A stretch of DNA of 63,964 bases, counting the filler, from Collodictyon triciliatum (taxonomy: Eukaryota): assembly GCA_043381765.1 (NCBI GenBank). It is 4 parts of 4 records of this genome, joined end to end, with 100 filler letters (N's around TTAATTAATTAA, not from the genome) between each part and the next. Parts side by side here need not be neighbours in the genome. Positions count along the whole stretch, not along the records: positions 1 to 18,723 come from JBHJMP010001346.1; 3 more parts are not named here. The stretch is one strand, 5' to 3'. The stretch's first letter is position 1. The number at the start of each line of letters is the position of its first letter. The position numbers were made by a program, and so were the translations under genes. Below, piece by piece: positions 1,170 through 52,237 of this stretch. The notes under the pieces were generated by a model, which saw only the letters and a list, made by a program, of their open reading frames with translations, was not told the origin of the DNA and searched no databases.

Positions 1170-4100
1170 ATGGAACTGACAGAGACATCGCGCTTCGGTG
1201 TCACCGTCAAGGATCTTCGCGAGTTGCTGGAGGCCGAGAAGGACAAAGGCGTCGAGCTGCTGAATACGAAATATGGAGGTCTGCAAACCCTTCATTTCTT
1301 CTCTCTTCATCTCTACTCCACTGAGGCGCTACACCTGGATTTCGCGTAGTGTCTTTCACTGCGATAGCAGCCCACTCATATATCTTATCTCCTCTCCACT
1401 CCCGCTCTCAATCCACACAGAATCAAATTCGTAGAATATTTCTCTTAGATTCCGCTTTTGTCATGATTGCACGAAGATTCACATAATCTGCTTTTTTTTC
1501 TTTGTTGTTGTTGCACGGCCTCTTTCAACAGGCGTCAGTGGGTTGGCTGCTGCGTTGAGAGTGGAGGTGAAGCAAGGAATTCCGTCCAACAACCCCTCGG
1601 GTTAGTATTCACATCTATTACTTCCCTTTCTCTGGGACAAACCCAAACAGCCAGTCAACCAATTATTTCATTCTTTTTTTTCTTTCTGCAGACGCTTTTA
1701 TGTTATGAGTTGGACGGTGGGTTCCCATATTCACTTCTGCTTCCTCTTTACACAGACGTTGCCGCGCGTATCTCACTCTTTGGAGAGAATGTGATGCCCA
1801 CGAAGCCGCCAAAGACCATCCTGGAGCTCGTGTGGAGCGCTCTGCAAGACTTTACCTTGATCATGTTGCTCATCAGTGCTGCGTTCTCTATAGGACTTGG
1901 TACTTTTCTTTTTCTTTTTTATGAGTAAAAAACCCCCTTTTTCATCTATGCACTTTGCCTCACCCAATTCTTTCCTTCGACCATGGTCATACGATCTTTA
2001 CTTCCACAAACCACCATAATAGCTCATCTTTGACGAGAAAGGTGATTAGCATGATGCGCTGTTTGTAATAGCCATTTTTCTTACTGTATTCTTCAATGAT
2101 AGGTATCTACGAAGATATCAAACATGATGTAAAGGGATGGGTGGAAGGAGTCGCCATTCTCTTCTCTGTCTTTGTTGTCGTCACTGTCTCCGCCCTGAAC
2201 GATTATGCGAAGGAGAAGCAGTTCCGCAAATTGAATGCCCAGGCCTCAGACATCTCCGTCAACGTCATTCGCAATGGCACCCAAGAGGTTTGTCCAATCC
2301 TATCGCAACGCTCATTCCTTGCTATTGCATGCCTCAATTACGGAACCAATAGTGCATTATTAGCAACCTATTTTCTTTTTGTTTGGTTTGCTTTCATGGT
2401 CACTTAGCCCATTATCATTCATACTTCAGGAAAATGAGTCCACCAACTATTCGATTCATAGCTTATATTATGGCTCAATTAAGCATTCATCTTTATTGTA
2501 GCAAATTTCCATCTTCAAGTTGCTTGTTGGTGATATTGTCGAAATCTCTGTTGGAGACATTCTCCCCGCAGACGGTGTTATTCTAGATGCAAATGACCTT
2601 AAAATCGACGAAAGCTCTCTGACTGGCGAGTCCGATATGATCAAAAAGTCCCATGAGAAGCCTTTCCTGCTGTCCAACACAAAGGTAAATTCCCACTAGA
2701 ATTATATTGCCATCCACATCAAAACAAAATACCTATGAATAGTCCATTCTTGCTATATCCCCCTTCCTTTAAGCAAGAAGTAACAAAACAAAGCAAGTTA
2801 AATCGGATTAATATGACTCTTACTACCTCCCGTATTATTTAGGTCATGGAAGGCAGCGGAAAGATGATTGTTGTTGCTGTTGGATGTAACTCACAGGCCG
2901 GCATTATCAAAGCACTCATTCTGACAGGGAAGTTCTCCACCACTGGTGCAAATACGTCTGAGGCTGACGGAGAGAAGTAAGTCTTGGCTACCTCTATGTC
3001 TTGTCACTGATGCGGTCTATCACAAGATGAGACGTCAGCGGTCCACCGTCAAGAATTTGAACATTTCCAAATCTTATATCTTATTGGATGTATGAACTCA
3101 TAGGAAGGAAGAGGAGGAGGAAGAGGAAGAAGCCACCTCTGTCCTTCAAGCTAAGCTAGAAGACCTCGCTATCCTGATTGGCAAGGTTCAATCTCATTCA
3201 ATCAAAACACCATGAAGAAACGTAGCAGTAGACGACAATTATCATCCACTTCAATCTAAAAAAAAAATCATCCATTTCAATCGGTCATTACGAGTTTGCA
3301 TCACATCACTATTTTCTAGAATTGAAGTAGAAAGTAACGGCTCAATGACAATTTATCGTTATAAAATTATCAGATTGGTACAACAGTGGCTGTTGTTGCC
3401 GTCGTCATTATGATTATCAGACTTCTTGCCCACAAACCAAATAACTGGGGTACTGATGAGTTCAACGATTTGATCCGCTTCTTCATCACTGGCATTACCA
3501 TTCTGGTCGTGGCTGTCCCTGAGGTTTGCATCCGTATGATATAGCTATGATATCAAAGCACTGAATCCATGGACGTTTTATATTATAGTGACTTTCTCCA
3601 TTCTAGGGAATCTGTTGTTTGCCTTCTAATTAGCTTTCATATTTCTAACATTCATCTGACATCCTTCAGGGTCTCCCACTCGCCGTTACACTTGCTCTTG
3701 CCTTCTCTGTCCAGAAGATGTTGGACGACAAGAACCTGGTCAAGCACCTTGACGCCTGCGAAACCATGTATGTTGACCTCTTTATTTCTGAAAAAATCAG
3801 AAAGAATCATGTTTTTTTTAGTACCAAACAAAAATGCAACCTAAAACAACCTGGGTTGCCTCATGAGTTATTCCTTATTCGTATCACCAACAACAGGGGA
3901 AGCGCCACCACCATTTGCAGTGACAAGACTGGTACCCTTACCACAAACCGAATGACTGTGATGTCCTCCTGGATTGGAGATATTAACTTGAGTCAGTTTT
4001 ATAACCCGATGTTTATGTGTCTACATAACCCAAATAAAGTAAGATATATCTTGGCCAATATTTACTGATTCACCTAAATATCGATACAATATTTCCTCGT

Positions 4101-7100
4101 GCGCATAGAGGAGAAACCAACTTTGAAGAACGTCAATCCCGGATATGCCGACCTCTTGGCCCGTTCCATCGCCGTTAACTCCACTGGACGCGTAGAGTTC
4201 AAAGGTGGCGTTTGGGACTACATTGGCAACAAGACCGAGTGCGGTATGATCAAGTTTTTAGTCGAGGAGAACTTCGACTATATGGCCATGAGAAGCAGTG
4301 CTCAGGTTCAAAGCAGAATCATCCTTTCCCTCATATTTGCTCAGTATTGATATTTCTTTGTATTTATGTTGCTTATCTTACAAATCATGGAGGAAATAAC
4401 TCACTCCAAGTTTCTCCCAGCCAATCCATCACACTCGTTCATTCTCTTGCATATCCAATTAAGTTTGCGCAGTATGAATCACACAGATACATCCCATTCT
4501 AATCCACTTACGAACCGTTTGTTAAGGTTGTGCGCGTCTTCCCATTCTCCTCCAAACGTAAGAGAATGAGTACCGTTGTCAAGCTCCCCACAGGTTCTCT
4601 CCGCATCTACACTAAGGTTTCTATCTTAAATAGAACTTTATTTGGAATATATATTACTTTCTACAAATATTTTGATTTGGGCACTGGAGATTGCCTTTCT
4701 CATCGTTAAGTTAATAATCACAACCAGGGCGCCTCTGAAATTATCCTTGGCCGCTGCTCTCACTATGTTGATGCTCAAGGACACTCTCACGTTATGACGC
4801 CCCAGAAGATGGAATCTGTCAATCGCGAGGTATTTCCTTAGCTTTTAATCGGCTTAGGTTCCGCTACACCATTTCCGTGACCACTTTTTGACGTAGAACA
4901 TATTGAACCCTCTTAGACCATCAACGCTTTTGCTGAAAACGGCCTGCGAACACTCTGCATGGCATACAAGGATATATCTGAAAGCGAACTCGAGCTTCTC
5001 GATGAAGAAAATGAGCCTCTCGCTGAGAAGGGACTGCAGTGTTTGGCCATCCTTGGTATTGAAGACCCTGTCCGCGACGAAGTCCCCAAAGCTATCAAGA
5101 CTTGCAATCGTGCTGGAATCACTGTTCGCATGGTCACTGGTAAGAACCGCATCCCAACACTCTTTTTGTTATTGAAACTCTTTATTGCACTGTTGTCGTA
5201 TACTGGCAACCGATTTCTATGCATTTTCCTCTTATGTGCTACTTCTTCGACTTATCACAAAATGATTCACCAGGTGACAACTTGACTACTGCCATCTCTA
5301 TTGCCCGCAAGTGCGGTATTATTCCTGAGGAGACACGCGACTACTCTATGTTTGCTATGGAAGGCCCTGCATTCCGCAAGCGTGTTCTTACTGAGGACGG
5401 CAAAATCAGACAAGTATGAAAGGCCAAATTATTCATATTCGATAATTGTCCAACACACTTCTCATTTCTTCTTTATATTGTAATTTTTTTTTGGAAAGCT
5501 GTTTTACTGACTCACCCAAAAAACAGGATGAGTTTGACCGCATCTATCCTCAACTCCGTGTTCTTGCCCGTTCCTCTCCTGCAGACAAATTTACACTCAT
5601 CACTGGATTGCTTGAGACCAATCTCCCTGATAAACAGGTTAGTACATCCAGACAGCAACTCACTATTCTAGCTATCTCTGGTCAGTGGATGAACCTCGTA
5701 CATATCATATCATCCTAATTCCTACTCTGATTAGGTCATAGCTGTCACCGGAGATGGTACCAATGACGCCCCAGCACTGAAGAAGGCCGATGTCGGATTC
5801 GCTATGGGAATTCTCGGTACCTCTGTCGCCAAGGTTTTCATTTTTTTTTTTTTTTACGCATGGGTATACTTTCCACTTGATTTGTTTGAAAGACCAGCCA
5901 TAATCACATGCAAACCAACGCCGAATGGCTATCTTCTTCATCCTTTTCCCCGTTCTCTTGGTATTTGAACACAATCATTCAAACTGATAGCCCGCGCGCT
6001 TATCTCTGTTTATACTACAGGATGCTTGTGATATCATTCTTACTGACGACAACTTCAGCAACATCGTGAAGGCTGTGATGTGGGGTCGCAACGTGTATGA
6101 CAGCATCGGCAAATTCCTGCAATTCCAGCTGACTGTCAACGTGGTTGCCATCACCATCGCTTTCATTGGTTCGGTTGTCAATGAGGAATCTCCTCTGAAG
6201 GCTGTGCAACTTCTCTGGGTGAATTTGATTATGGACTCCTTTGCTTCCCTGGCTCTCGCCACCGAGCCGCCAACAGATGCCTTGCTCAACCGCAAGCCAT
6301 ATCCCCGCGACCAATCCATCATCTCCGCCAGGATTGCGACCACAATCCTAGGAAATGTACCTTCAATTATATTCATCTATCATATTAGATTGACGCTCAC
6401 ATAGATGCTTTTGAGGTTTCTGCCCCTTTTACTGGACTAACAATCACCCTCGCACTGTATTCAGTCTATCTACCAATTGGTCATCCTCTTCACGATTTTG
6501 TACTCTCCCTCCTCGTTCGACCTTGAGGACGGATTTGGAAACACTCACCCTGGAGACCCGCCAACCAAGCATTTCACCATAGTGTTTAACACATTCGTGC
6601 TGATGCAACTATTCAACGAATTTAATGCCAGGTGCGAATTTAATGCATTAATGTTAATAATTTTATGTCTGATAATGCCGAAAAAATAAGAAAAATATAT
6701 GGTACTTGCAACTGTCATTTCGGTTCTGTAGATTAATGCTTAATTCCCACTAAAAAAAATTAATAGAAATCTTCACGGTGAGCTGAACCCCTTCCGCAAT
6801 ATCCAAAACAATCACATCTTCACTGGTATTTGGTTCGGCACATTTGTCGTTCAGGTTCACACACATTCTTAATTCGCACCCACAGAAATTAAATACAAAG
6901 CAGAGGTATCATCCGTTTTAATAAGCTACATAAGTCCCTTCCTTTCCTTCCCTCCCTTCCCTCCATTCCCTCCACCAATCAATCAATATATCTCACTACT
7001 TTGAGATACATTCTCTTTCTAGGTTTTGATTGTCTTCTTTGGTGACACCGTCTTTGGTTGCAAACCACTCAACGGGGACGAATGGGGCATCTGTATTGCC

Positions 7101-13700: not shown

Positions 13701-15320
13701 GATATAGTCAAGCGAACAGTAATTATTTTATCATTGTATCAGAGTAAGTTATCGAATAATATGACTTTTTTACAGTTATGATTGTCTGATTAATTATAAG
13801 CATAAAGGTTGCACTGGAAACAATAACGAATCGAATCAGTATATTTCGATAAATATGCAAATTATGATGATGAACAATTAATAATATACTGATTAATTTA
13901 TTGGAATACATCGATATTTATAGTCTTTCATTTTGAGGAATATTAAAATATAATTTCAACACTTTGAATCGAATAAAGGAAAAAAAATTTCAACAAATAA
14001 AGCAATTTTTCATAGGATACCACTGGTTCTGGTAATGAATATTTTATGAGATAATATTTTACAATATTCATCTGATGAAGAATCTATTAATACTTGCACT
14101 TGAATTATTATCGCATATCATTTCAATTTTAATATTATTCCCATACATCTCATGATTAATCCATATGCCAATCGATTAGCTATAAAAATTATATTTCATT
14201 TATCACTAACTTTTTAACATCATATCATCCGCTAATCCAATTCTGGATTGCTGAAAAAACAAGTTAAATGTATGATATATTTTTGGTCGATTAATCAAAT
14301 TAATTGGATGTTTTTTTTGATTTTAGACGCTGTTTCAAAGAATACATGATTGAATAACCAATTTAATATTTATTTCCTATCTTTATCAAATATTATATAC
14401 GAAATGTGAAAAATGTACCCAAATGATTGACACGGTTTTCCTTGATGACATGTTTTATTCATACTTTAGATGCACACTTAATTTCTTGATACGCATAACA
14501 TATAGCTGTTTTATCATCTTGAATCCTTTTAAAATCATGCAAATTGTTTGAATAATAATTAATTCCATATTTTTAATTATATGTGTGATATATTTTGATT
14601 TAAAAGTGCATATAATTGATTGAAAAGTCTGTTGTGAAATCTTTTGCTATTTTGGTTATCAAAATTTATTTATTTATAGCTTAGACAAACCAAACCTATT
14701 TTTATCAAAATGATCCATATATTATCCTATTATTTAAACTTAAACTTGATTTTTTGATTTATTATCATGCTCTATTCACAATAAGGCTATTTTGCATGAG
14801 TCCCATATTTTTGATATTGTGTTCCTTATGTCGTAAATTCATTTATTAGTTTTAAAGACATTATTTATCTAATGGTTTAATAGTAATTTTCCTTCAAGCA
14901 TCAAATCAAAATCTACTTATAATTGATACAAAAATGACCTTGCTAAAAATATAACCGAAGTCTAATGAATTTTATCAATCTTATAAAAAAATTGTGAGTT
15001 GATATCGATTTAATTTGAGATGGTGACTATTTTGCATTTTAATATAAGTGAATCAACTGATTAAGTCACTATATCATGTAATAAAATATTCATGTTTATC
15101 AATGGATATAAATATTAGTATTCATATTTTGAGAGATTTTATTATATAAGTATTATTGAATTTTTGTGTAGATAATCTATCTATGTATTTCTGAATCAAT
15201 TAATTAAAGTTTAAGTAGAGTGATTCAATATTAGATATTTAAGTAAATGTCTTGATTGGGTATTACATCACTTCATAAAATTTTGTATATATGTTTAAAC
15301 ACTCATCACATTAGTTTAGA

Positions 15321-18300
15321 ATGAGATTGAACTCAAAGTCGTTTGCAGCTATGTTGCTGTTGGGTGAGTTTTACTTTAATTGTCTTTTTTTGGTTTCTTT
15401 TCAACAGTTTATTGAGAGATTACTACAATTGTTTTAATTTTATTGACTTCAAATTATGTAGAATTTTAATTGATATATCTTTAGGATTGACACTCCACTG
15501 CCAATTGTATCTTGTTGAAGGGCAAGATGATTTGATTCGCACATTAACTGGTCATACTAGCAGTGTTCGCAGCGTTGCTGTTACTCCTAATGGATCGAAA
15601 ATCGTTTCTGGAAGTCGTGATAATACAATCAAAATCTGGAACCTTTCTGATGGAGCTTTGATTCGCACGTTATATGGTCATAATAGTTATGTTAACAGTG
15701 TTGCTGTAACTTCTGATGGATCGAAAATCGTTTCTGGAAGTAATGATAAAACAATCAAAATCTGGAATCTTTCTGATGGAGCTTTGATTCGCACATTGAA
15801 TGGCCATACTGGTAATGTTCGCAGTGTTGCTGTAACTCCTGATGGATCGAAAATCGTTTCTGGAAGTAATGATATAACAATCAAAATCTGGAATCTTTCT
15901 GATGGAACTTTGATTCGCACATTGACTGACCATACTAGTACTGTTTGGAGTGTTGCCGTTACTCCTGATGGCTCAAAAATTGTTTCTGGAAGTAGTGATG
16001 CTACAATCAAAATCTGGAATCTTTCTGATGGAACTTTGATTCGCACATTGACTGGTCATACTAGTGACGTTAGCAGTGTTGTTGTTACTCCCTATGGCTC
16101 AAAAATTGTTTCTGGAAGTAGTGATGCTACAATCAAAATCTGGAATCTTTCTGATGGAGCTTTGATTCGCACATTGACTGGTCATACGGATTCGATTGGC
16201 AGTGTTGCTGTTACTCCTGATGGCTCAAAAATTGTTTCAGGAAGTGATTATCCAGATAATACAATCAAAATCTGGAATATTTCTGATGGAGCTTTGATTC
16301 GCACATTGACTGGTCATACTAGTGGTATTTCCAGTGTTGTTGTCACTCCTGATAGCTCAAAAATTGTTTCTGGAAGTGCTGATAATACAATCAAAATCTG
16401 GAATCTTTGTGCTGCTGGTCAGTTCTATGATTCAGGTTCAAATTCTTGTCAACTATGCCCATCTGGAAGCTATAGCGCTGGAGGAACATCATCTTGTTCT
16501 TCATGCCCAAGTGGCACATACAATCCTTCAACAGGTTCTACAAATGTTGGTGCTTGTATATCATGCGCAGCTGGCACATACAATCCATCAACAGGTTCTA
16601 CAGATGTTGGTGCTTGTATATCATGCGCAGCTGGAACATACAATCCATCAACAGGTTCAACAAGTGTTGGTGCTTGTCTTTCATGTGCAGCTGGAACATA
16701 CAACCCATCTATTGGTCAGGTAACTTGTCTTTCATGTGCAGCTGGCACATACAACCCATCAACTGGTTCTACAAGTGTTGGTGCCTGTATTTTCTGCCAA
16801 GAAGGAAAATATAGCAACAAGACAGGTCAGATATCATGCCTTAATTGCGAACCAGGAACATACACAAACATTAAAGGACAGACATCATGTTTTGACTGTC
16901 CATTAGGTTTTTACAATCAAGAATCAGGAAAAACATTTTGCACACCATGCGGCCCAGGAACGTACTCGAATTCAACAAGAGGTAAATCCTGCGGAGAATG
17001 TCCAGCTGGGACTTTTAATCCAAACGTTGCGTCAACCAGCATAAGCAGTTGTCAACCGTGCCCACAAGGGAAATTTTCATCAAAATCAGGCGAATCAACA
17101 TGCGAAATTTGTCAATCTGGTTCGTACAATCAATATCCAGGTCAGACTGGGTGCACTAATTGTACTGACGGAACTTACAATCCGAGATTTGGCTCAACAA
17201 GCAACTCGTCATGTGCTAAATGCCCACAAGGAACGTATGGTAATGAACAAAGAGATGAATGTTTATCATGTCCAGCTGGTAAATTCAACAACAAAATAGG
17301 CTCATTCAATCAATCATCATGCATCTTATGTCCAAATGGAAGCTACAGCTCAGAAAGAAGTGCATCATGCAGCTTATGCGTATCAGGATTCTATCAAAAA
17401 GAAGGCATCACCAAAGACTCGAAATCATGCTACCCTTGTCCAAAAGGCACATTCAACTCAAACTCCGGCTCATATGGAAACACATCATGTATTGAATGTA
17501 CCCAAGGTACTTGGAATGATAGAGATGGACAAGCATCATGCACATCTTGTACAGCTGGTACATTCAACAACAGAACTGGTTCATTTAATCAAACATCATG
17601 CATTTCATGCCCAAATGGAAGCTACAGCTCAGAAAGAAGTGCATCATGCAGCTTATGCTTATCAGGATTCTATCAAAAAGAAGGAATCACAAAAGATTCG
17701 AAATCATGCCACCCTTGTCCAAAAGGCACATTCAACTCAAACTCCGGCTCATATGGAAACAAATCATGCATCGAATGTCCACATGGTACTTGGAATGAAA
17801 GAGATGGTCTAGCATCGTGCACATCTTGTACAGCTGGTACATTCAACAATAAAACGGGTTCATTTAACCAATCTTCATGCGTTTCATGTCCAAATGGAAG
17901 CTACAGCTTAACTGGAAGCTCATCATGCAGTCTATGTTTATCAGGATTCTATCAAAAAGAAGGAATCAAAAAAGACTCACAATCATGCTACCCTTGTCCA
18001 AAAGGCACATTCAACTCAAACTCCGGCTCATATGGAAATAAGTCATGCATTGAATGTCCACAAGGCACTTGGAATGATAGAGATGGTCAAGCATCATGCA
18101 CATCTTGTACAGCTGGTACATTCAACAATAAAACTGGCTCATTCGATGAATTTTCATGTATTGAATGTCCAGATGGAAGCTACAGCTCAGAAAGAAGTGC
18201 ATCATGCAGTCTGTGCTTATCAGGATTCTATCAAAAAGAAGGAATCAAAAAAGACTCACAATCATGCTATGCTTGTCCAAAAGGCACATTCAACTCAAAC

Positions 18301-18723
18301 TCCGGCTCATATGGAAACACATCATGTATTGAATGTGCCCAAGGTACTTGGAATGATAAGGATGGTCAAGCATCATGCACATCATGTCCAGCTGGTACAT
18401 ATAACAATAAAACTGGCTCATTCAACCAATCATTATGTATTTCATGCCCAGATGGAAGCTACAGCTCAGAGAGAAGCTCATCGTGCACTTTGTGCTCATC
18501 AGGATACTATCAAAGAGAAGGAATAGCAAAAGACTCAAAATCATGCCATGCTTGTCCAAAAGGCACATTCAACTCAAATTTCGGCTCATATGGCAATAAA
18601 TCATGTATTGAATGTCCACAAGGCACTTGGAATGATAGAGATGGACAAGCATCATGCACATCATGTCCAGCTGGTACATACAACAACAAAACGGGCTCAT
18701 TCAACCAATCAGCATGCATTTCA
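15321..18723 (+). CDS. Predicted secreted/cell-surface protein: signal peptide + 7 highly similar WD40 repeats + tandem Cys-rich (GCC2_GCC3/ephrin-receptor-like) repeats; 3'-partial
   Basis: Exon 1 15321-15363, GTGAGT...TTTAG intron 15364-15484. The spliced N-terminus is MRLNSKSFAAMLLLGLTLHCQLYLVEG/QDD. Seven GH...WN repeats at 15532-16407, then CxxCxxGT(Y/F)N repeats with many N-x-S/T sequons at 16408-18723, cut off by the contig end. Confidence 0.85.
17329..18723 (+). repeat. Intragenic higher-order tandem repeat, five 279-bp (93-aa) units
   Basis: CCA(A/G)ATGGAAGCTACAGC recurs at 17332, 17611, 17890, 18169 and 18448, an exact 279-nt spacing. Confidence 0.9.
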
Positions 18724-18823
18724 NNNNNNNNNNNNNNNNNNNNNNNNNNNNNNNNNNNNNNNNNNNNTTAATTAATTAANNNNNNNNNNNNNNNNNNNNN
18801 NNNNNNNNNNNNNNNNNNNNNNN
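18724..18823. other. Artificial contig spacer N44-TTAATTAATTAA-N44
   Basis: Identical 100-bp spacer at three places. The 12-mer puts stop codons in all six frames. Confidence 0.97.
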
Positions 18824-18936
18824 TATGTATGTATGTATGTATGTATGTATGTATGTATGTATGTATGTATGTATGTATGTATGTATGTATGTATGTATGT
18901 ATGTATGTATGTATGTATGTATGTATGTATGTATGT
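18824..18936. repeat. (TATG)n microsatellite at contig start
   Basis: Directly visible. Confidence 0.95.
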
Positions 18937-19084: not shown

Positions 19085-24348
<5,264 letters not shown>

Positions 24349-40900: not shown

Positions 40901-43900
40901 GCATCTTCATGTCTTAAACTATTCGGCTAGTACTTAATATTTTATTTGGCGGGGGGGGGGGGGGGTTATACAAATTGAATCCCTATTTAATTCTATGAAT
41001 ATAGGAATTCACTTAATCTACTGAAAAAGAGGATCACATCAAGACGATCAACCGGATTTTTCTTCGTTGAAAAGCCATTTTTCGATGTGGATGTTGAGTT
41101 AACCATTCCACAAGTGAGCATGAACCCATCTTTGGACGAAATTCAGAAATCTATTAATGCTGTTAGTGTTAGCATACTAGGCTCCACAAAATCACTACCA
41201 ATATGGAGACAGGTAGCCTACTATTATACCTTCTTTTTCTTTTTTCTTTTCTTCTTTTAGTCTTTAGTCATTTCTCATTTCTCATTTCTCATTTCTTTTT
41301 CTTTTGTTTTTACTTTCTTTATTTTCATTACATGATAAAGTGAACATGGTTATAGGCCAAAGAGGCCAAAGAGACTTTCTACGACATCATAGCCAGAGAT
41401 AAGGCTGTTGTTAGGATGGTTCTTCTACTAACGGGAAGGTAATTCATAAAAAGTTTTTTTTTTTTGTCGCAAGAACTGTAATTTAACTTAATTTTAGCTA
41501 CTGCATATCAACATAATCAAATTTCACAATATGAGGATTATTGCATCACCACCTAATTTTCACCCCCTTCAAAAAAAATAATAATTCAGCATTGAAGGTC
41601 TAAAGATGCAAGTTAATGATTACCTATCGACGTTTCACAAATATGAGTACTTATGGAAAGAAGATATGAAAAAGTCTTACGAGAGGTTTACAGAGTCTAA
41701 CCCCAGCATAGAGGATTTCGAACATGAAATGAGGAAATATCTAGACGAAGAGCACGCCATATCTTCTATTACAGCAATTCATGTGATTGGAGCTCTCTCC
41801 CTACACACACAGTCCCTTCGCTATTCATTAAAAGCTGAGGCAGCTGGTTGGAAGTTACAGTATGCCAAAAGCCTGCACAAACAAGCGTATGACGAGATGG
41901 TTGGAATAATCAAATACATTGAGACCACAGAGCAGCAACTTAAACAAGAAATTGTCGACATTGATTCCCTAAAGATAATTCTGGATCTAATCAAAGTTGT
42001 CCGGGACAAAAACACTGAGGTAGACATTATTATCGGTCCTGTAGAGGAAACTTATTCGCTGCTTACTCGATACGAGGTGCGAGTTCCAATGGAAGAGCTA
42101 GACCAAGTAAGTGAGCTACGTTCAAGATGGAAATCACTGAATAAGAAAGTGGCTGATGTCAACGACAATATACAACAACTTCAAATCAACTTCAAGAGGG
42201 ATCTAATTCGAAACATCAAGTCCTTCCAAGTTGACGTGATACAGTTCCGAAATGATTTTGACTCCAATGGCCCAATGGCTCCTGGTTTAAAATCATACGA
42301 GATTCTAGAACGGATGAAGTTCTTTCAAAGAATGTATGACGAAAGAGAGCGAAAGTCGACCACCTACGAAACTGGAGAGCAAATATTTAGTCTACCAAGA
42401 ACTGATTTCCCGGAATTAATAAAAACCAAGAGAGATTTAAAAGGGCTACAGTACCTTTTTAACCTTTACGAACAAGTGGAAGAGTCTATGGAGAACTGGA
42501 CGAATACTCCTTGGTCCAATATCAACCTGAAGCTGATTAAAGACAAAGCTGACGAATTCGAAGGGGTATTCAAGAAAATTCCAAAAAACCTTCGTGAGTG
42601 GGAGATTTCGTCAGAGATTAAGTCTACCCTAGACGAAATAAACAGAGCTCTGCCTATCCTTGAAAGTCTCTCGCATCCTTCGATTCGCCCCAGGCATTGG
42701 AGCCAAATCATGCACATTGCCGGAAAGAGCCTCAAGCTGGACTCTGATGTTCTCTATCTCAAAAATATTCTAGATGTCGGTCTGTCAAAGCATAAAGAGG
42801 ATATCCGTCAAATAGTCGAGGGCGCTGAAAAAGAAGAGTTTATTGAGCACCGACTGAGACGGATTCAAGAAGACTGGGCAGATCAGGTGTTTACATTTAC
42901 TGCGTTCCGAAACCGAGGCCCCATCTTACTGAAAATACAAGAGACATCTGAGATCATGGGACTACTGGACGAAACACAGACAAATTTATCCACTATAATG
43001 GCATCGAGGTATATATCCGCCTTCAAGGAAGAAGTTGGTTCATGGATCAACAAGCTCTCTATGGTTTCTGAAGTAATAGAAGAAATTTTGGCAGTACAAT
43101 CAACTTGGAGCTCGTTAGAATCCGTCTTTACCACTGGAGACATAATGAGGCAGCTCCCTCAAGAGACCAAACGGTTTTCGAACGTTGACAAACATTGGGT
43201 AAAACTAATGAATAAAGCCTTCGAGGTAAGAAATGTACTTCATGTATGTTTAGCCACAGAGAATGTCCGAAACATTTTGCCTCATCTTATGGAACAATTA
43301 GAGCTTTGCCAACGTTCTTTAAGCTCATACCTGGAAATGAAAAGGTCGATATTTCCCAGCTTCTACTTTGTATCCGACTCTGTTCTTTTAGAGGTACTGA
43401 GCCAAGGAATGGACCCAAATGCGATCCAAGGTCACTACAAATCCATTTTCGAAACAGTGTCTTCATTGATAATCAAAGAATCATCCGTGGCGAATGAGCC
43501 TTCCACAATCAGAGCTGGTGTATCCCCCGAGGGAGAAATCATCCAATTATCCACACCTGTCAGTAGTAGTAAAACTGTCGAAACATATTTGAAACAGGTA
43601 GAGGCTGGGATTGTCCATACCATCAAAAAATCATGCATGGAACTATCTGCAGGATTCCAGGGATTGAGTCTGGCAGACTTGCTAGATAAGTATATTTCAC
43701 AACTTGGTATTATTGGACTCCAACTTTTGTGGACCTCAGATGTTCAAAATAGTATCTCAAAATCAAAGACCGAAAAGAATATTATGACCATCCTCGGCAA
43801 GCGGATAAACTCGACTCTAGCCGATTTAATATCACTAGCTAGTAAAGAAAACAGCGGGCCAATCAACCAGATGAAGCTGGAAAACATGATTATGTTTCAA

Positions 43901-46900
43901 GTCCACAATAGGGATGTTTTTGATGAAATTGTCCGAAAAAAGGTGAAAGAGACAACCGACTTTGATTGGACCAGACACATTAGATACTACTGGAAGAGTG
44001 ACTCTAACGATCTGTGCGTGTCCATCGCAGACCAAGAAATTGTTTATGCCTATGAATACGTGGGGTGTAAGGAGCGGCTTATCATCACACCCCTAACCGA
44101 AAGATGCTTTGTAAGCTTATCGCAATGTCTTCACCTCAAGCTAGCAGGGGCCCCGATAGGTCCATCTGCCACAGGGAAAACGGAAACAATCAAAGACCTT
44201 GGGACTACAATTGGTAAAATTGTTCTTGCCTTCAACTGCTCTGATCAAGTCGATTACAAAAGCATGGCCAGAATACTCAAGGGTCTTGTTGAAACTGGAT
44301 ATTGGGGCACCTTTGACGAATTCAACAGAATGGATGATATTATTCTTTCAGTAGTGGCACAACAAGTCCAGACAATATTCGATGCACTAAGAGAAAAGAA
44401 GCAAACGTTGTATCTATCCGACGGACCTGCCATCAAAATCAACCCCCGAATGGGAATCTTCTTCACCATGAACATGGAAAAAAGTGGTCGACATGAACTA
44501 CCAGAAAACCTTAAAGTACTGTTTAGACCCATTTCGATGATTGTACCTGATTATGGTATTATTATCAGGGTTCGATTAACCGCAGCCGGATTCCAAGACT
44601 CTGCCAACCTTGCTCGAAAGATATACACATTGTATACCGCATGCGAACAGCAGCTGACCAAATCTGTTCAGTATGATTTTGGTCTTCGAAACATACTCAC
44701 CATCCTTCGCAGTCTCGGACCAATTAGGAGGTCTCAAAATGCTTCAACTCCTCAAGAGCATGTGTTTATCATGAGAGTGCTTCGCGACGCAAATATCGGA
44801 CGGCTATCAAGCGAAGACGTTCCAATTTTTTTGGCCTTGTTGAGTGACACATTCCCGAATTCGCGGATTGAGCGCACGAGAATTGACAAGCTGGAGCAAG
44901 CAATCAAAAAAGTTATCATGGAACAAAGTCTCGTAGTTGTTCCCGAGTGGATGGATAAAATAACACAGATTTATGATACATCTATCACTAGACAGGGCTT
45001 AATTATATATGGGCCTGCTGGCTCTGGAAAAACAAAGGCTTTGGAAGTCTTACTGACAGCACTTACAAATTTGGGTGACAATCAACGACAAATTCGTATC
45101 AATCCAAAATCATTATCGATGGGTGAATTATTTGGGTACTTTCACCCAATCAACGGAGACTGGGTTGATGGAGTTCTTCCTTCTTTGTGGAGAAAAGCGA
45201 GCAAACTAAGACACATGACCACTTGGTTTATTTTAGATGGTCCTATGGATACCCTATGGGTTGAAAATCTAAATTCAGTGCTGGATGACAACAAGGTTTT
45301 GACCTTGGCCAACGGCGACAGACTGCCACTCAATGGAAACATTCGTATTGTTTTCGAGACAGATTCTCTAGAAAATGTTTCACCAGCAACTGTGTCTAGA
45401 ACCGGTGTAATTTGCCTGAACGAAAATATCATCGGGTGGAGGTCACTCGTAGAAGCATGGTTAAAAACAAAGAGATCCTCTGAAGTGCCTATATTTTCCC
45501 CCCTTTTTGATCTATACATCGAACAATTTTACAACTTTATAAAAGGGAACGTTTCATGCATTCTGAAAATATCTCTCTTGAACCAAGTATACTACATGAC
45601 GCAATTGCTGAATTCTGTGTTGCCAGCCCCCATAGATAGTGATGGGCTTACTGAGACGCAGATTGAACGCGGATTTATATTTTGCCTACTTTGGTCGCTA
45701 GGAGGAATGGTAGATGTTGCAGATCGGCCAAAAGTTGACAGGTTTTTAAGGTCTCTAAATGAAGCACTGCCTGGAAACGAGTCGGACACTATATACGAGT
45801 ACTACATCAATGAGGATACGGGAGAATGGAGCTCCTGGGCACATCGTTTGTTGTCCACTTTGCAAACTCAACACTCATTCGCAAATTTTGATGTCTTTGT
45901 ACAAACACAAGAAACCATCAGACTTCAGTACTTTCTGGAAAAATTGCAAGAAAAATCTTACCACATTCTTGTGGTTGGTCCTAGCGGAATAGGAAAATCC
46001 TCAACAATCCACAACCATTTGTTAAAGGCTAATTCAGAACATACATGCTTCCGTACGCTTTCGTTCTCATACAGCACCAGTGTTTCGACCTTCAAAAAGA
46101 ATTTCGAGTCCCTGATTGATCGTAGACAGGGCAAAGTATACGGACCTCTCGGGGGGAAAGCCATGACACTTCACATAGAAGATCTGAATATTCCACAGGA
46201 GAGCCAATGGGGAGATCAACCGACTAATGAATTTCTCCGGCACCTAGTCGAAGAGCGTGGTTTCTACAACACGCAGAAAGTGGGTGATTTTTGTCTCGTC
46301 TCTGATATCTCATACATCGCCAGCATGGGGATACCTAAAAATGGCCAGATTAAGCTTTCAGATCGATTGTGTCGCTTCTTTGTTCCCTTGCAGCTCACCC
46401 CACCTTCGATTGATTCGATTTATAACATATTCAATACGATTGCTCAATCAATTGTCGACCTGTCCCCAGAGTCTGAGTTTAGACAGATGCTCGAGCAGTT
46501 CCCTAAGGCGACAATCAGGGTATGGGAGCTTTTACGGGCCAAGTTGACTTCAACTGCCACAAAACCTCATTATGAGGTTACGATGAGAGAAATTTCCAGA
46601 ATCATCCTATCAATCGTCCGAACTAGCAAAGACAAATTCAAGGACTTGAAAGGATATAGCGAGCTCATAAGAATATGGTCTCATGAATGTTCCAGGGAGT
46701 TTGGAGACCGTGCTGTCAGCGCCGAAGATAGGTTAATGATTGACTCGACAATAGAGTCCGTTGCAAGCATGATTTGGGGAGACCATGGGTTAATGCAGGG
46801 CCCTATAAAACCAGTTTGGCTGACGAAGCTTCCAGAAGACGATCCGTTGGACTCCATTGACACATCCATACCCATTGGATTCAACAACATGGCTCTAATA

Positions 46901-49900
46901 GAAGATGCCAATCTATATTACCCTCTTGCCGTTAAATATCTGAGTTCATATAATGACATCCCATCGAACGGATTTATGAGCATATCTTTCTTTGAAAATG
47001 CTTTACAAAACTTGATGAGATTGCTGCATGTATTGAACAAAACTAGGGGATGTGCATTACTCGTAGGTGTCGGGGGCTCAGGGAAGCGGTCTCTGACAAG
47101 GCTGGCCTCTTTCATATCAGGGCAGGAATGCACTGTGTTGACGAATGAGAAGAGCTATGGTGCTTCAAATTTACTAGAGCTTTTCCGAAAGCTTTTGAAG
47201 CAAACAGGTGTAGAAGGTAAATCAGTAACATTTCTGATTCCTGAAAACACACTAAAAAATGACGAATTTTACGATATTTTTAACGGATATCTAAACCATG
47301 GACATATACCCGGATTGTTCTCGAAGGACGAAATCGATCAAATTGTCAACGATTTACGAATAGTTGCAAAGAAGCAAATCCCTGGCTTCGTCGACAGCTG
47401 GGACAATCTGTTTCGTTTCTTTTTAGATCGAGCACGTGATAGGCTTCACATTATCATTTGTGTGTCCTCTGTTGGAGATGGCTTCCGAAACCAATTACTC
47501 AAATTCCCTGGCTTCTTGAAAGGCTGTACCACTATTTGGTATCCTGATTGGCCGGAGCAACTTCTCCAACTAATCGCCACCGAGATGATCCATAAATTCG
47601 AACTGCAATTGGATCCAAGACTAAGAAATGAAGTGGGTTATTACATGTCATCTATCCACTTGATTGCCTTGAAAATTGCCGAGGATTATCGAACAAAGTT
47701 CCACAGGCAAGTTCATGTTACTGGGAAGACTTTCATAAGTTTTGTGAACCAATTCCATAGAATCTACTCAAGCAAGTTTATCGAGGAGGAGACACAGATG
47801 AAGAGAACTCTGGCAGGACTAGAAAAAATGAAGAAAACCGAGATTGATGTTGAGCGAATGAAGACAGAGTTGCTTGAAAAGGAAAAAAGCTTTGTTGAGG
47901 CTCAAAAAACATCTACGAAATTGCTTTCTGATATAACAGAAAAAACCGCTCGTGCAGAGAAAAAGAGAGCCGAAATTATGGCTGTACGAAATGAGCTGGC
48001 ATCCGAGGCTGAGAGAATCCAGCGGGAAAGAGAAGAATGTGAACAAGACCTATTGGCAGCGAGGCCGCCCCTGGATGAAGCTATCCAGATAGTAAAGTCT
48101 ATTCAACCGAAAGACATTCAAAATCTCAAAGTCTTGAGAAACCCTCCTGAACTCATAAAGAGAATATTTGATTGTGTCTTAATTCTATTCCAAAAGAGCC
48201 TTATTCCAGTGGAACCTGTTGAGGTAAAGGGCAATTTGTACTTTAAGGATTCCTATCAAAATGCCCTGATATTAATGACAGACCCTGGGTTTTTGACAGA
48301 AATCCTCAATTTTCCTATGGACCATTTAACTGACGAACAAGTCGAGTTGATGGAGCCATATCTTGCTGCAGAGGATTTTACATTCCAAGAAGCAAAAAAA
48401 ACATTCGGAAATGTCGGCGCTTTATGTAAATGGATACAAGCGTTGGTTGATTATCACAAGGTCTCCAAAATCATACGCCCAAAAATCTTTGCTCTGGGAG
48501 CCTCTGAGGTGAAAGTGAAGATAGCTAACGAGAACCTTCAGGCTGCCATCGCCGAGCTGGAGCAAAGCCAGAAGGAACTCGACCAAATGCAGGTAGATTT
48601 TGACCATGCGATGTCTGAGAAAAGAAAGATACAGGACCAAGCTGAAGCGACAAAGAGCCGAATTGAGGCTGCAAATGAGCTCTTGGTTGGACTGCTTTCT
48701 GAAAGGAGGCGATGGAGTGACTATGCGAATGAATCTGTGGAGAGGCGCGGGAAATTGGTTGGAGACTGTGCCATAGCCGCTGCATTTATATCTTACTGTG
48801 GTCCATTCAATCATGAGTACAGAGATATGTTAGTTTCGTCCATCAAGAAAGAGTGCTCCGAGAAAAAGATATCCATGTCTACTAACCTCGACCTGGTGAA
48901 ATTCATCCAGTCAGATGCCAAAATTGGTCAGTGGTTTATACAGGGTCTTCCAAATGATGCGCAATCCATCCAAAACGCCTTGATTATGACCCAGACTAGA
49001 AAATCGCCCATTATTATTGATCCCCAGTCACAAGCATCTGACTGGATAAAGAATTGGCCGGAGGCAGAGGGTTTGAAGATGGTGTCTATGCTAGATAAAA
49101 ATTTTAGAATAATATTGGAGGAGGCCTTATCATCAGGCAGAAAAATCGTTATCGACGGAGCCACACAAGACTTGGACCCTGTTCTAGAAGCCTTGTTGGA
49201 GCTAAACATCGTCAGAACGAATCGCGGTGCTAGGGTCATTCTTCCCGATAAAGATGTTGAATTCCACGAAACCTTTGAAATGACTGTGATCTTGCGAGAG
49301 CCAAATCCTCATCTGAACCCGGAAATATATGCTAGGTCAACAGTAATTGATTTTAGTCTCACCATGAACGGTCTAGAATCGCAACTACTCTCAAGGTTAT
49401 TGCAAAAAGAAAAGTCTGAGCTTGAAGAGCAAAACAAAAAGAATATGGAAGAAACGAATACGTTGCGTGCCCGCATAGAGTCGGTAGAGTCTGAATTGCT
49501 CGCATTACTGTCAAATGCAAAAGAAGATCTGTTGAATGACACCGAGGTCATTGATTTAATGGGCAAGGCAAAGCGAACTTTCCAAGAAATTTCAGAAAAG
49601 CTAGAGTTGATGGCCGAAACCGAGAAAAGGATAAACACCGCCCGAGAAGAGTTTCGCCCTGTTGCTACACGGGGGGCCGTGATATACTATTTACTCCTTG
49701 AATTGAATCTCCTCTCTCCGCTATACCAGATCTCTCTGGGTCAGTTTGTGAATGTATTTGACTCTGCAATCAAAACTGCAGAGAGAGCAACAAACGTTTC
49801 AAAAAGGTCTGCAAATGTCATGGACAACTTTACATTTATGATCCACCAGCATACATCAAGAGGATTATTAGAGCATCATAAACATGTATGGCTGATTTTG

Positions 49901-52237
49901 CTTGCAACCAGGATAGGGATTTATTCAGGTTCTGTTACTCCAGCAGAGCTTAACATGTTTTTGAAAAGTGTTATCTGGCAGGATGGAAAAGCTCCAAAAA
50001 AGAAACCCTTTGATTGGCTTTCAGAACAAACATGGGGGTCTATTGTATCGCTTACTACTCTGCCCAATTTTGATAGTCTTTCTGATACAGTCTCGAGGAA
50101 TGAAGCGTTTTGGAAGGGGTGGTTGGAAAATGACGCTCCAGAGGAAGTAAAAATTCACGAGTTGGATGACAGGCTGACAGCTTTCCAACGGTTTTTGCTC
50201 GTAAGAGCATTAAGAGAAGACAGAACTTTACATGCCGGAGTTGAATACGTCAAAGTTAGTCTTGGGAAGAAATTTTCTGCCTTTCCGCCTTTGGATATGG
50301 AGCAGGTTTTAATCGATGGAAACTGTCGTTCACCCATCATCTTTATTTTGACCGCTGGGATGGAACCCACCCCTTTAATCATGGAATTAGCCCGGAAAAA
50401 GCAAAAGGAGATCAAAAACCTTTCTTTGGGCCCTGGACAGGATGCAAATATCAAGCGAATACTTTTGCAAGAATTTACCACAGGGAATTGGATTATCCTC
50501 CAAAACTGCCAATCAAATCTGCGGTTCCTTGTGGATGTGGAGCACTTGCTGACGCGAAAAGATATCTCGGGTGACTTCCGCCTGTTTATCACAACCACTG
50601 CCACCTCCAGATTCCCTGTGTCCTTGGCTCAATCCTCCATCCGCATATGTATGGATTCTACTCAAGGTGTCAAGGCAAGTATGCGAAAGTCGTACTCGCT
50701 GGTCACCCAAGACATAATGGATTGCTGCGTCATCACAGAATGGCGTCCTACAGTCTATGCAGTGGCCTTGCTGCATGGAGTTATTCAAGAAAGAAAAAAG
50801 TTTGGCCCTGCTGGGTTGAGCGGGACGTACGAATTTTCCCAATCAGACTTTGTGACTGCCATACGGTTCCTTCGAGAACACTTTGTAGAATCTGAGGCAA
50901 AGAGGACGCCAGTCTCATGGGGGATGGTAAAGTATATCCTATGCGAGATTGTCTACGGCGGAAAGATAACGGATGAGTATGACAAGAGAATTTTCTCAAC
51001 TTATGTGGATGCGTGGTTCTCACGTAAAATGAGCGAGCAAGGATTCCACTTTTCTCATGTGTCGTATGTCGCTCCTAAATTTGCAGAGTTGAATCGAGTG
51101 CGTCAGGCTATAGAGGAGTTACCAAGCAATGACCACCCAGACCTGTTTGGTCTCCAGGCGAATGCAGACATCGCGTACAAGACTGCAGCTGCGCGCGCAA
51201 ATCTTGTTTTGCTGGCTGATTTCCAGGCGAAGGAGTCTGTCTGTGCCAATTCCATCCCAAGAGAGGAAATTGTGCTTAAAACCTGCGAAGAGGCATTGTC
51301 CAAACTACCTGGCGACTTTAATATGGAGGAGGTGAGAGATAAGATTAACAAAAAGTTGGGCGGACCGAAGCCGATGAATATGTTTTTAGTGTCCGAGATA
51401 GAAAAGCTTCAAAGTTTGTTATTAATGGTTCGGAGTTCCCTGGTCGAGCTCAAAGATGCTGCCTCGGCCAACATAAGCCCTGAATCGGATTTGTCTGAGC
51501 TGTTCGATAGTATCTTTGAGTCTAGAGTCCCCTCGTTGTGGTCGAAGCATTCATGGGCTTCTTCCACGTTGTCTTTGTGGCTGCAAGGTCTAAACCAACG
51601 AGCCGACCAGTTGAATTTATGGGTGAATAGTGGCAAACCAGCGGTGTTGTGGATGCCTGGGTTCTTCAACCAACAAGCATTTTTGATGGCCATGAAGCAG
51701 GAGGTTATCCGAAAGCACCCTGGGTGGGCCTTGGATGATACAGTCCTAGTTAGCGAGGTCTTGCCCAAGGACAAAGAAGAAATCAAGAATGCGCCTGAAG
51801 AGGTTTGTCTTTTCTTTTTCTTTTTTTTTTTTGTCTCAGAAAACTATAATCTTCAATCCATTCCCTTCTTGGCTTCTATTCAACTACTTGCGGCGAAATA
51901 TGCCGAGATAAAAAAAAATACAAATATCTAAACCACAGCGCCACTGTAGGGTGTATTTGTGTCTGGTCTATTTTTAGATGGCGCTGCATGGGACAAAAAA
52001 GCTGTGAAGCTAATCGATCTTCCGCCCAGAACAACTTATTTCCCATTGCCTGTTGTCTTTATCAACGCTGTAAGCGTCACGGAGCCAAGGAAGGACCAGC
52101 TGACTTACACCTGCCCGTGTTACAAATACCCCACTCGTGGAATGCTCAACCATGTTGTCGATCTCGACTTGCGATGCGAGGAAGACCCGGCCAAATGGGT
52201 CAGCCGTGGAGTTGCTGTCATATGCAACCAACTCTAG
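37942..52237 (+). CDS. Axonemal dynein heavy chain, outer-arm gamma (DNAH5/8-like) type, 5'-partial
   Basis: Tail DNVKYLSTLEKYTEPLY...IHTIARFYSTSDRMTTLFYKITNQMI and RNAPPVAGNIAWARQLLRRIEEPM. Four P-loops GPSATGKT, GPAGSGKT, GPSGIGKS, GVGGSGKRS; FDEFNR, YDFGLRNIL, WVENLNSVLDDNKVLTLANGDR; microtubule-binding domain LRNPPELIKRIFDCVLILF; C-terminal GLFLDGAAWD, YTCPCYK, KWVSRGVA. Confidence 0.95.
38935..39127. repeat. Intronic compound microsatellite (TTTTTTG)n + (TTTGA)n
   Basis: Directly visible in a dynein intron. Confidence 0.95.
39496..39546 (-). mobile_element. Very short 5'-truncated retroposon copy with 10-bp TSD inside a dynein intron
   Basis: Flanked by TAATAGTTTT at 39486-39495 and 39547-39556. 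The body TTTTATTCTTCCTTTCAATTTTGTGCAGGATGGTGAAGATGTTGGC closely matches 10585-10630. Confidence 0.75.

Follow-up and report, generated by a model that had tools for sequence, protein, structure and literature searches.

The 63,964-nucleotide stretch of Collodictyon triciliatum DNA analysed here (assembly GCA_043381765.1; four parts joined end to end, referred to below as the window) carries on its plus strand, from 15321 to the end of a contig at 18723, a gene for a protein with a seven-bladed WD40 head followed by a long cysteine-rich stalk. In our reading, to which we give a probability of about 0.6, the product is a surface or secreted recognition protein whose head was made by amplification of a blade and whose binding face has been diverging under selection. 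At four codons in each of the seven WD40 units change has outpaced that at synonymous sites in the surrounding scaffold and, on a predicted structure, these codons fall at the top-face hotspots of WD40 propellers. We take the gene to be a genuine one, from a microbial eukaryote, and its features are as follows.

15321–15363 (+): exon 1, from its ATG, 14 codons plus 1 base, with a signal-peptide-like N-terminus
15364–15484 (+): intron of 121 nt, GTGAGT...TTTAG, phase 1, AT-rich, predicted from sequence
15485–18723 (+): exon 2, a stop-free open frame ended by the end of the contig
15532–16419 (+): seven WD40 units making up one predicted seven-bladed propeller (PF00400, AlphaFold2, Foldseek)
15562–16386 (+): hypervariable codons 11, 13, 29 and 31 of each unit, at +30, +36, +84 and +90 from the unit start (the last at +96 in unit 6)
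16408–18723 (+): cysteine-rich Ephrin_rec_like (PF07699) stalk, from PF07699 matches and tandem arrays
18724–18823 (no strand): spacer joining contigs, 44 N + TTAATTAATTAA + 44 N; the 3' end of the gene is missing

The WD40 array and its predicted fold

Tandem Repeats Finder places the array at 15531–16408, with a period of 126, 6.9 copies, 86% matches and a score of 1187. Read in frame, it resolves into seven 42-codon units which begin at 15532, 15658, 15784, 15910, 16036, 16162 and 16294. Unit 6 is 132 nt long and its two additional codons follow Ser-Gly-Ser, at 16249–16254, where an original prediction from the sequence alone had placed a two-codon insertion. The same prediction described 126-nt WD40 repeats with shared synonymous codons, and we find an identical triplet in all seven units at 16 of the 42 codons, 15 of these at residues which have synonymous alternatives. 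Its statement that the repeats are homogenised at the DNA level holds only in part: the units are similar, with pairwise DNA identities of 81–90% (84–95% leaving out codons 11, 13, 29 and 31), but the synonymous divergence (dS) between them is approximately 0.27, which is not near-identity, and the term is overstated. At the amino-acid level the blades share a mean identity of 78.5% (range 66.7–85.7%), or 88.4% when the four variable positions are left out; the level given in Dyrka 2014 for high internal conservation of the HNWD type is approximately 85% across a length of 100 amino acids or more. The residues His8, Ser26/Ser28, Asp30 and Trp36 are invariant in all seven units, and the structural tetrad His / Ser-Thr / Asp / Trp, as defined in Wu et al. 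2012 (PMC3419727), is present in every blade.

The head matches PF00400 in seven stretches (E = 4e-74; 242 bits, the cut-off being 27). A single-sequence AlphaFold2 model covering 15487–16467 predicts a closed seven-bladed propeller with four strands per blade, with a predicted local distance difference test score of 90.5 and a predicted template-modelling score of 0.87. In the model strand A comprises repeat positions 12–17, strand B positions 23–28, strand C positions 32–37 and strand D positions 1–6 of the next unit, and the last blade is closed by the first strand. The top Foldseek match is the seven-bladed WRAP-T design 7big_A (template-modelling score of 0.98 normalised to the target, r.m.s. 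deviation of 0.7 Å), followed by PkwA (5yzv) and 2ymu.

Translation of the whole long exon contains no in-frame ATG, so the start must lie upstream of this exon. An in-frame TAG (15312–15314) stands before the ATG at 15321, which opens an exon of 43 nt, and joining 15363 to 15485 (AG at 15483–15484) puts the long exon back in frame. The frame of exon 2 lies within an open reading frame (ORF) called at 15343–18771 and continues for 3.2 kb without a stop, across two different repeat arrays. A variant genetic code was considered and ruled out, since with the standard code the long ORFs stay open. The gene is cut inside the 279-nt stalk array at 18723, and because the contig ends there the C-terminus and any anchor lie beyond the sequence read.

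Variable codons and probable selection

Six amino-acid states are found among the seven units at codon 11, five at codon 13, five at codon 29 and four at codon 31, and no more than three at any codon elsewhere; positions 6, 10, 20 and 42 are also variable, with three states each. Several of the four most variable codons differ between units by two or three bases. Val/Ile12 lies between codons 11 and 13 and the invariant Asp30 between codons 29 and 31, and the residue pairs which the original prediction listed around the first V/I and around the Asp are exactly those of the translation. In the model, the D–A loop ends with codon 11, strand A has codon 13 as its second residue, and the Asp of the B–C turn has codons 29 and 31 on its two sides. 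In the description of Wu et al. 2012, two of the top-face hotspots (R1-2 and R1) stand at an interval of two residues where strand a begins, and a third, D-1, comes directly before the tetrad Asp. Taking the strand order of the model together with these published positions, and not coordinates, codons 11, 13 and 29 are the top-face hotspots R1-2, R1 and D-1 and codon 31 is D+1, in agreement with the original suggestion that the variable sites are top-face hotspots. The variable residues predicted on the top face number 28 in all, four per blade, to which is added the lengthened B–C turn in blade 6.

The same arrangement is described for HET-D and HET-E of Podospora anserina (HNWD). According to Paoletti et al. 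2007 (PMC1805685), codons 7, 9, 25 and 27 of HET-D/E are positively selected and are paired around codons 8 and 26, which are under purifying selection. Both systems are made of 42-codon WD40 units in tandem, highly conserved among themselves in HET-D/E and perhaps so here, and in both there are two hypervariable pairs, each around a conserved residue of the interaction face, with a spacing of 2-16-2 (7, 9, 25, 27 against 11, 13, 29, 31). The proposed likeness of site layout to HET-D/E is upheld.

Divergence was estimated by the Nei–Gojobori method, pooled over the 21 unit pairs and codons 1–38, for the seven units of this one locus. Codons 11, 13, 29 and 31 have a dS of 0.43 and a non-synonymous divergence (dN) of 1.30, giving a dN/dS of 3.0, while the other 34 codons, which form the scaffold, have a dS of 0.27, a dN of 0.06 and a dN/dS of 0.23. 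For the four codons taken together the non-synonymous rate exceeds the synonymous rate, and variation is concentrated at these sites. We also simulated neutral codon evolution 1500 times on the tree derived from the scaffold sites, with the four codons taken as an a-priori set from the HET-E and WD40 literature. The summed non-synonymous differences at these codons amount to 124.7, compared with a neutral mean of 39.3, and this value was reached in none of the 1500 simulations at a neutral distance (d) of 0.27, 0.43 or 0.6. In the most severe control, a post-hoc one in which the best four of 38 all-neutral codons were taken, none of the 1500 runs attained the observed value at d = 0.27, and at 0.43 P was 0.025. 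The four codons have changed faster than the scaffold synonymous sites, and for a single locus the pattern is statistically solid.

The stalk provides an internal control. Five 93-codon stalk units, counted from 17266, have a dS of 0.39, a dN of 0.08 and a ratio of 0.21, and their array is of similar age to that of the propeller. Variation in these units is found at 31 of the 93 positions, is scattered and has no more than three states at any one of them. Because the stalk array varies so little and in so scattered a manner, the hypervariability is specific to the propeller and not general to the tandem repeats of this gene.

An explanation by relaxed constraint only, in which an old amplified propeller is diverging wherever the fold tolerates change and no adaptive diversification has taken place, seems to us very unlikely. 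It would be consistent with the account of Wu et al. 2012, where top-face loop residues are generally the least constrained WD40 positions, and with the three states also found at each of positions 6, 10, 20 and 42. However, neutrality predicts that dN should be about equal to dS, and the observed values are 1.30 and 0.27–0.43; no simulation reaches the observed value at the a-priori codons at any of the three distances, and the changes of two or three bases at several codons also argue against it. Positive selection, as opposed to a homogenisation that spared these codons, would best account for the pattern.

The original prediction went further and proposed that the repeats are shuffled by concerted evolution. 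In such a HET-E-like generator, unequal crossing-over or gene conversion would keep the array similar both within itself and between paralogues, and the order and number of blades would vary between individuals, giving a population a repertoire of surface specificities. Within the array we find no support for this. A mosaic test on the scaffold (99 sites, nine of them parsimony-informative, 945 trees) gave a homoplasy excess of 3 on the best tree and six incompatible site pairs, a signal of gene conversion or mosaicism that is not significant (P = 0.05–0.33, depending on rate heterogeneity). Neighbouring units are the most alike, and synonymous markers at codons 21–24 split units 1–3 from units 4–7, as simple duplication predicts. 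The scaffold data fit simple tandem duplication along a tree of neighbouring units and give no positive sign of exchange. There is no second copy of the WD40 or stalk part within the window, where none of 17 tblastn high-scoring segment pairs falls outside the gene. A dS of 0.27 is also far from the identity of up to 100% described for HNWD repeats.

Sequences from outside the assembly bear on the same question. Ten metagenome runs from 10 studies contain small shares of the stretch (up to 0.09), and in the four of these runs which were compared in detail the contigs are 81–256 nt long and 85–100% alike, with none spanning the array. These contigs cover parts of the array and the upstream non-coding region; one of 151 nt corresponds to 15101–15251 and shows no difference. 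Listed differences, with codons mapped by hand, comprise 40 of the 201 found, and 28 of them are in the array: 13 in the four codons, eight at synonymous third positions and seven other replacements. The 6-nt insertion that marks unit 6 is missing from one contig, and three additional letters are present in another at the matching turn of unit 4. In some contigs the beginning of unit 1 is joined to units further on, and codons 10–13 are replaced by other letters. We regard the metagenome contigs as a weak echo of the pattern, which may derive from paralogues or from other species. For the generator, then, there are the match of the four codons and their pairing to HET-D/E as published, the pace of the hypervariable codons relative to synonymous sites, the joints and the insertions and deletions at the B–C turn in these contigs, and the break of the contig inside the second repeat array, which is to be expected at a repeat-rich locus that is hard to assemble. 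The joints rest, however, on 85% likeness and short sides, and other organisms may be their source. Taken with the missing mosaic signal and the lack of a paralogue in the window, this leaves the generator a rather unlikely account of the array.

Stalk, probable secretion and relatives

PF07699 is matched in 18 stretches of the stalk (E = 5e-119), and NCD3G and TNFR_ELAPOR1 are matched as well. The stalk has 84 cysteines in 774 residues and 22 N-x-S/T sequons; the seven blades have no cysteine. It contains two tandem arrays, one of 279 nt in 5.2 copies with 88% matches (17265–18723) and one of 60 nt in five copies (16501–16790), and the assembly probably broke on the 279-nt repeat, the contig ending inside that array.

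At the N-terminus a basic start is followed by a hydrophobic core, with nine-residue Kyte–Doolittle means of up to 2.57, and the translated protein has no hydrophobic segment between the propeller and the stalk. A WN(L/I)S sequon is present in blades 1–6 (15640–16284 in the window), at the end of strand C and on the bottom side, and may represent a glycosylation signature of a secreted propeller. A seventh sequon is found in the A–B loop of blade 1. Because of the signal-peptide-like exon, the lack of an intervening hydrophobic segment, the contiguous 84-cysteine stalk and the blade sequons, there is a strong case from the sequence that the head and the stalk are both extracellular or lumenal, and the extracellular use envisaged in the original prediction appears sound. 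The company kept by such stalks also counts in favour of a secretory context, as relatives of the stalk bear typical extracellular heads (RCC1, Kelch, F5/8-C, VWA, TSP1, CUB, FN3) or receptor kinase or GPCR parts. A cytosolic NLR-like protein was considered and ruled out, as there is no NTPase domain among the profile matches shown.

In the preferred reading of a diversifying recognition protein, a putative signal peptide comes before a single seven-bladed WD40 propeller, which is followed by a long disulfide-rich Ephrin_rec_like stalk. The propeller would have originated when a single 42-codon blade, consensus-like in the manner of those in bacterial WRAP and fungal HET-E proteins, was amplified in tandem. 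Purifying selection would have kept a common scaffold across the blades as the top-face residues (R1-2, R1, D-1 and D+1) diverged faster than synonymous sites. The outcome would be a ligand-binding head whose specificity is set by its variable top face and which the stalk holds away from the membrane, and its targets may be cells, prey, microbes or mates.

In sequence the nearest to the head is the cyanobacterial WRAP protein (2ymu_A, E = 3.8e-177, the best PDB match), and the designed WRAP-T proteins come next. Its best database matches are bacterial and fungal STAND, NACHT or kinase proteins with WD40 parts, at no more than 64% identity over the blades. A protein-atlas search made with the head gave no score above 0.84. 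The WRAP protein of Nostoc punctiforme (Npun_R6612, PDB entry 2YMU) is the closest solved relative, with 49% identity by fold match and a consensus-like blade, and in published descriptions R1 varies between WRAP blades too. That propeller differs in being bacterial and in lying at the C-terminal end of a STAND ATPase protein, with 14 blades described as free of synonymous differences, whereas the present head has seven blades, a dS of 0.27, a unit of 42 and not 41 residues, a signal-peptide-like N-terminus and a cysteine-rich stalk. With this dS and no STAND ATPase or other NTPase domain among the families shown, the head was ruled out as a WRAP in the strict sense.

There are also differences from HET-D/E. 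The present protein is without a HET or NACHT part and is, as far as can be judged, extracellular; its host is a eukaryote that does not look fungal and has an axonemal dynein gene; and its blades, with a dS of 0.27 and 78.5% amino-acid identity, do not approach the up to 100% described for HNWD repeats. Matches to WD40 and Ephrin_rec_like take up the 1079 residues, with neither a HET nor a NACHT domain among the 25 families shown, of 53, and between 12000 and 15343 no ORF reaches 80 amino acids. Membership of the HET-E family was ruled out, as no HET or NACHT part is among the families shown. Outside fungal NLRs, according to Dyrka 2014, WD, ANK and TPR repeats seldom show high internal conservation (0.4–1.2%), and in the account of Pereira & Lupas 2022 highly repetitive propellers are mostly bacterial, with fungi making up 84% of the eukaryotic cases.

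The nearest architecture, so far as it is described in the literature, is that of the ectodomain of the plant receptor kinase CRINKLY4, in which a signal peptide and an N-terminal seven-bladed propeller, termed an extracellular WD40, are followed by a TNFR-like cysteine-rich domain. That propeller is described as having a disulfide in each blade, an N-terminal strand which fills the pore, and UVR8 and BLIP-II as its nearest folds. In contrast, the present blades are canonical PF00400 units without cysteine and are very similar to each other, and in the model the first strand closes the last blade. A full-text literature search returned few matches in which an extracellular or secreted WD40 is named, the CRINKLY4 preprint being among them.

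Repeated cysteine-rich modules of the kind found in PF07699 extracellular repeat proteins are present in the stalk. Ephrin_rec_like stalk proteins from metagenomes and from Anaeramoeba, Andalucia, Cafeteria and Paulinella are 25–40% identical to the stalk over most of its length. In the 120 best stalk relatives, counted by eye, approximately 26 carry an RCC1-type propeller and two a Kelch propeller, and others have lectin, VWA, TSP1, CUB, FN3, kinase or GPCR parts; a WD40 head with a hypervariable top face is not seen among these 120, which is where the present protein differs from them. The RCC1-headed stalk proteins include P0371, P0372, P0374 and P0387, and in metagenomes some of their clusters comprise as many as 302 sequences. 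The 120 best matches of a whole-protein search are WD40-only, and a search with the junction region (226–430) returned no protein with both parts and one protein with RCC1 and the stalk.

A number of points weigh against a secreted, selected recognition protein. To our knowledge, canonical WD40 domains are nearly always cytosolic. None of the 250 proteins fetched by exhaustive HMMER and local phmmer searches has both a WD40 part and the stalk, none of 80 metagenome loci (the best 59% identical) has the cysteine-rich part, and PF00400 is listed for none of the 120 best relatives in a stalk-only search (counted by eye from precomputed Pfam lists). These searches rank by summed repeat score, returned no self match, and could have let short or fragmentary relatives escape. 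As they were not made by architecture, and as the source genome's own proteins seem to be absent from the databases, the lack of a relative with both parts is weak evidence. The post-hoc test on the best four of 38 codons is not significant at a neutral distance of 0.6 (P = 0.32), and gene conversion which homogenised the scaffold, lowering its dS, and spared old differences at functional codons could yield the contrast in dN/dS. The C-terminus is missing from the contig, and the putative secretion signal has been judged by hydropathy and the splice model. Finally, this is a single locus in a fragmented draft assembly, in which the order or number of units that are 81–90% identical may be mis-assembled, and among the sequencing runs searched for the stretch no RNA run is listed as containing the gene, which bears on both the intron and its expression.

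These last points would also suit an artefact or a dead gene, that is, a chimera or collapse of the assembly, a pseudogene fragment, or a wrong signal-peptide exon on a protein that is not secreted. In its favour are the draft state of the assembly, whose contigs measure about 18.7 kb, and the truncation of the gene at the end of one of them. A frame of 3.2 kb which stays free of stops through two different arrays is, however, not what a dead or chimeric gene would be expected to show, and dN/dS is 0.2 in both scaffolds. The fold is predicted with confidence, the splice restores the frame exactly for an exon without an in-frame ATG of its own, and the 84 cysteines in Ephrin_rec_like modules are hard to square with a cytosolic protein. 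We consider an artefact most improbable.

Genomic context and significance

Spacers of the same make-up as that which follows the gene (44 N, TTAATTAATTAA, 44 N) are found at 37554–37653 and 56417–56516. The spacer is a six-frame-stop sequence between contigs of approximately 18.7 kb, which are apparently ordered by size. As it joins separate contigs, the genes on its two sides are not neighbours. The true upstream neighbour consists of fragments of a multi-exon P-type cation ATPase at 1467–6401 (+), with matches to N- and C-terminal domains, and about 5 kb of AT-rich sequence (28% G+C) separates these fragments from the WD40 gene. On a different contig an axonemal-type dynein heavy chain of 3441 codons occupies one uninterrupted frame at 41606–51931 (+), from which it follows that the organism is flagellated or ciliated and uses standard stop codons. 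Another contig carries a PH-domain oxysterol-binding protein of 971 codons, in one frame, at 60752–63667 (-). The contig that follows the gene begins with a perfect (TATG)28 microsatellite at 18824–18936 and has a CTTT-type run at about 20370–20400.

It is conceivable, but in our estimation unlikely, that the protein belongs to a class of variable surface receptors, so far undescribed, of a free-living protist, with a head diversified by blade duplication, exchange and selection at the 28 top-face residues. Such proteins would be an extracellular, non-NLR counterpart of HET-D/E, used for allorecognition, mating or the discrimination of prey or microbes.

Published descriptions of fungal and bacterial STAND/NLR proteins of the cytosol include WD40 arrays which are conserved internally but hypervariable at binding-face codons, and which have been linked to non-self recognition. 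What is new here is the same residue-level pattern on a head that is very probably extracellular, carried on a cysteine-rich stalk and found in a different eukaryotic lineage. This suggests that such tuning of a binding surface has been recruited independently for recognition at the cell surface. It would add a canonical WD40 domain to the short list of extracellular propellers, and it offers a concrete candidate recognition receptor in a poorly studied protist.

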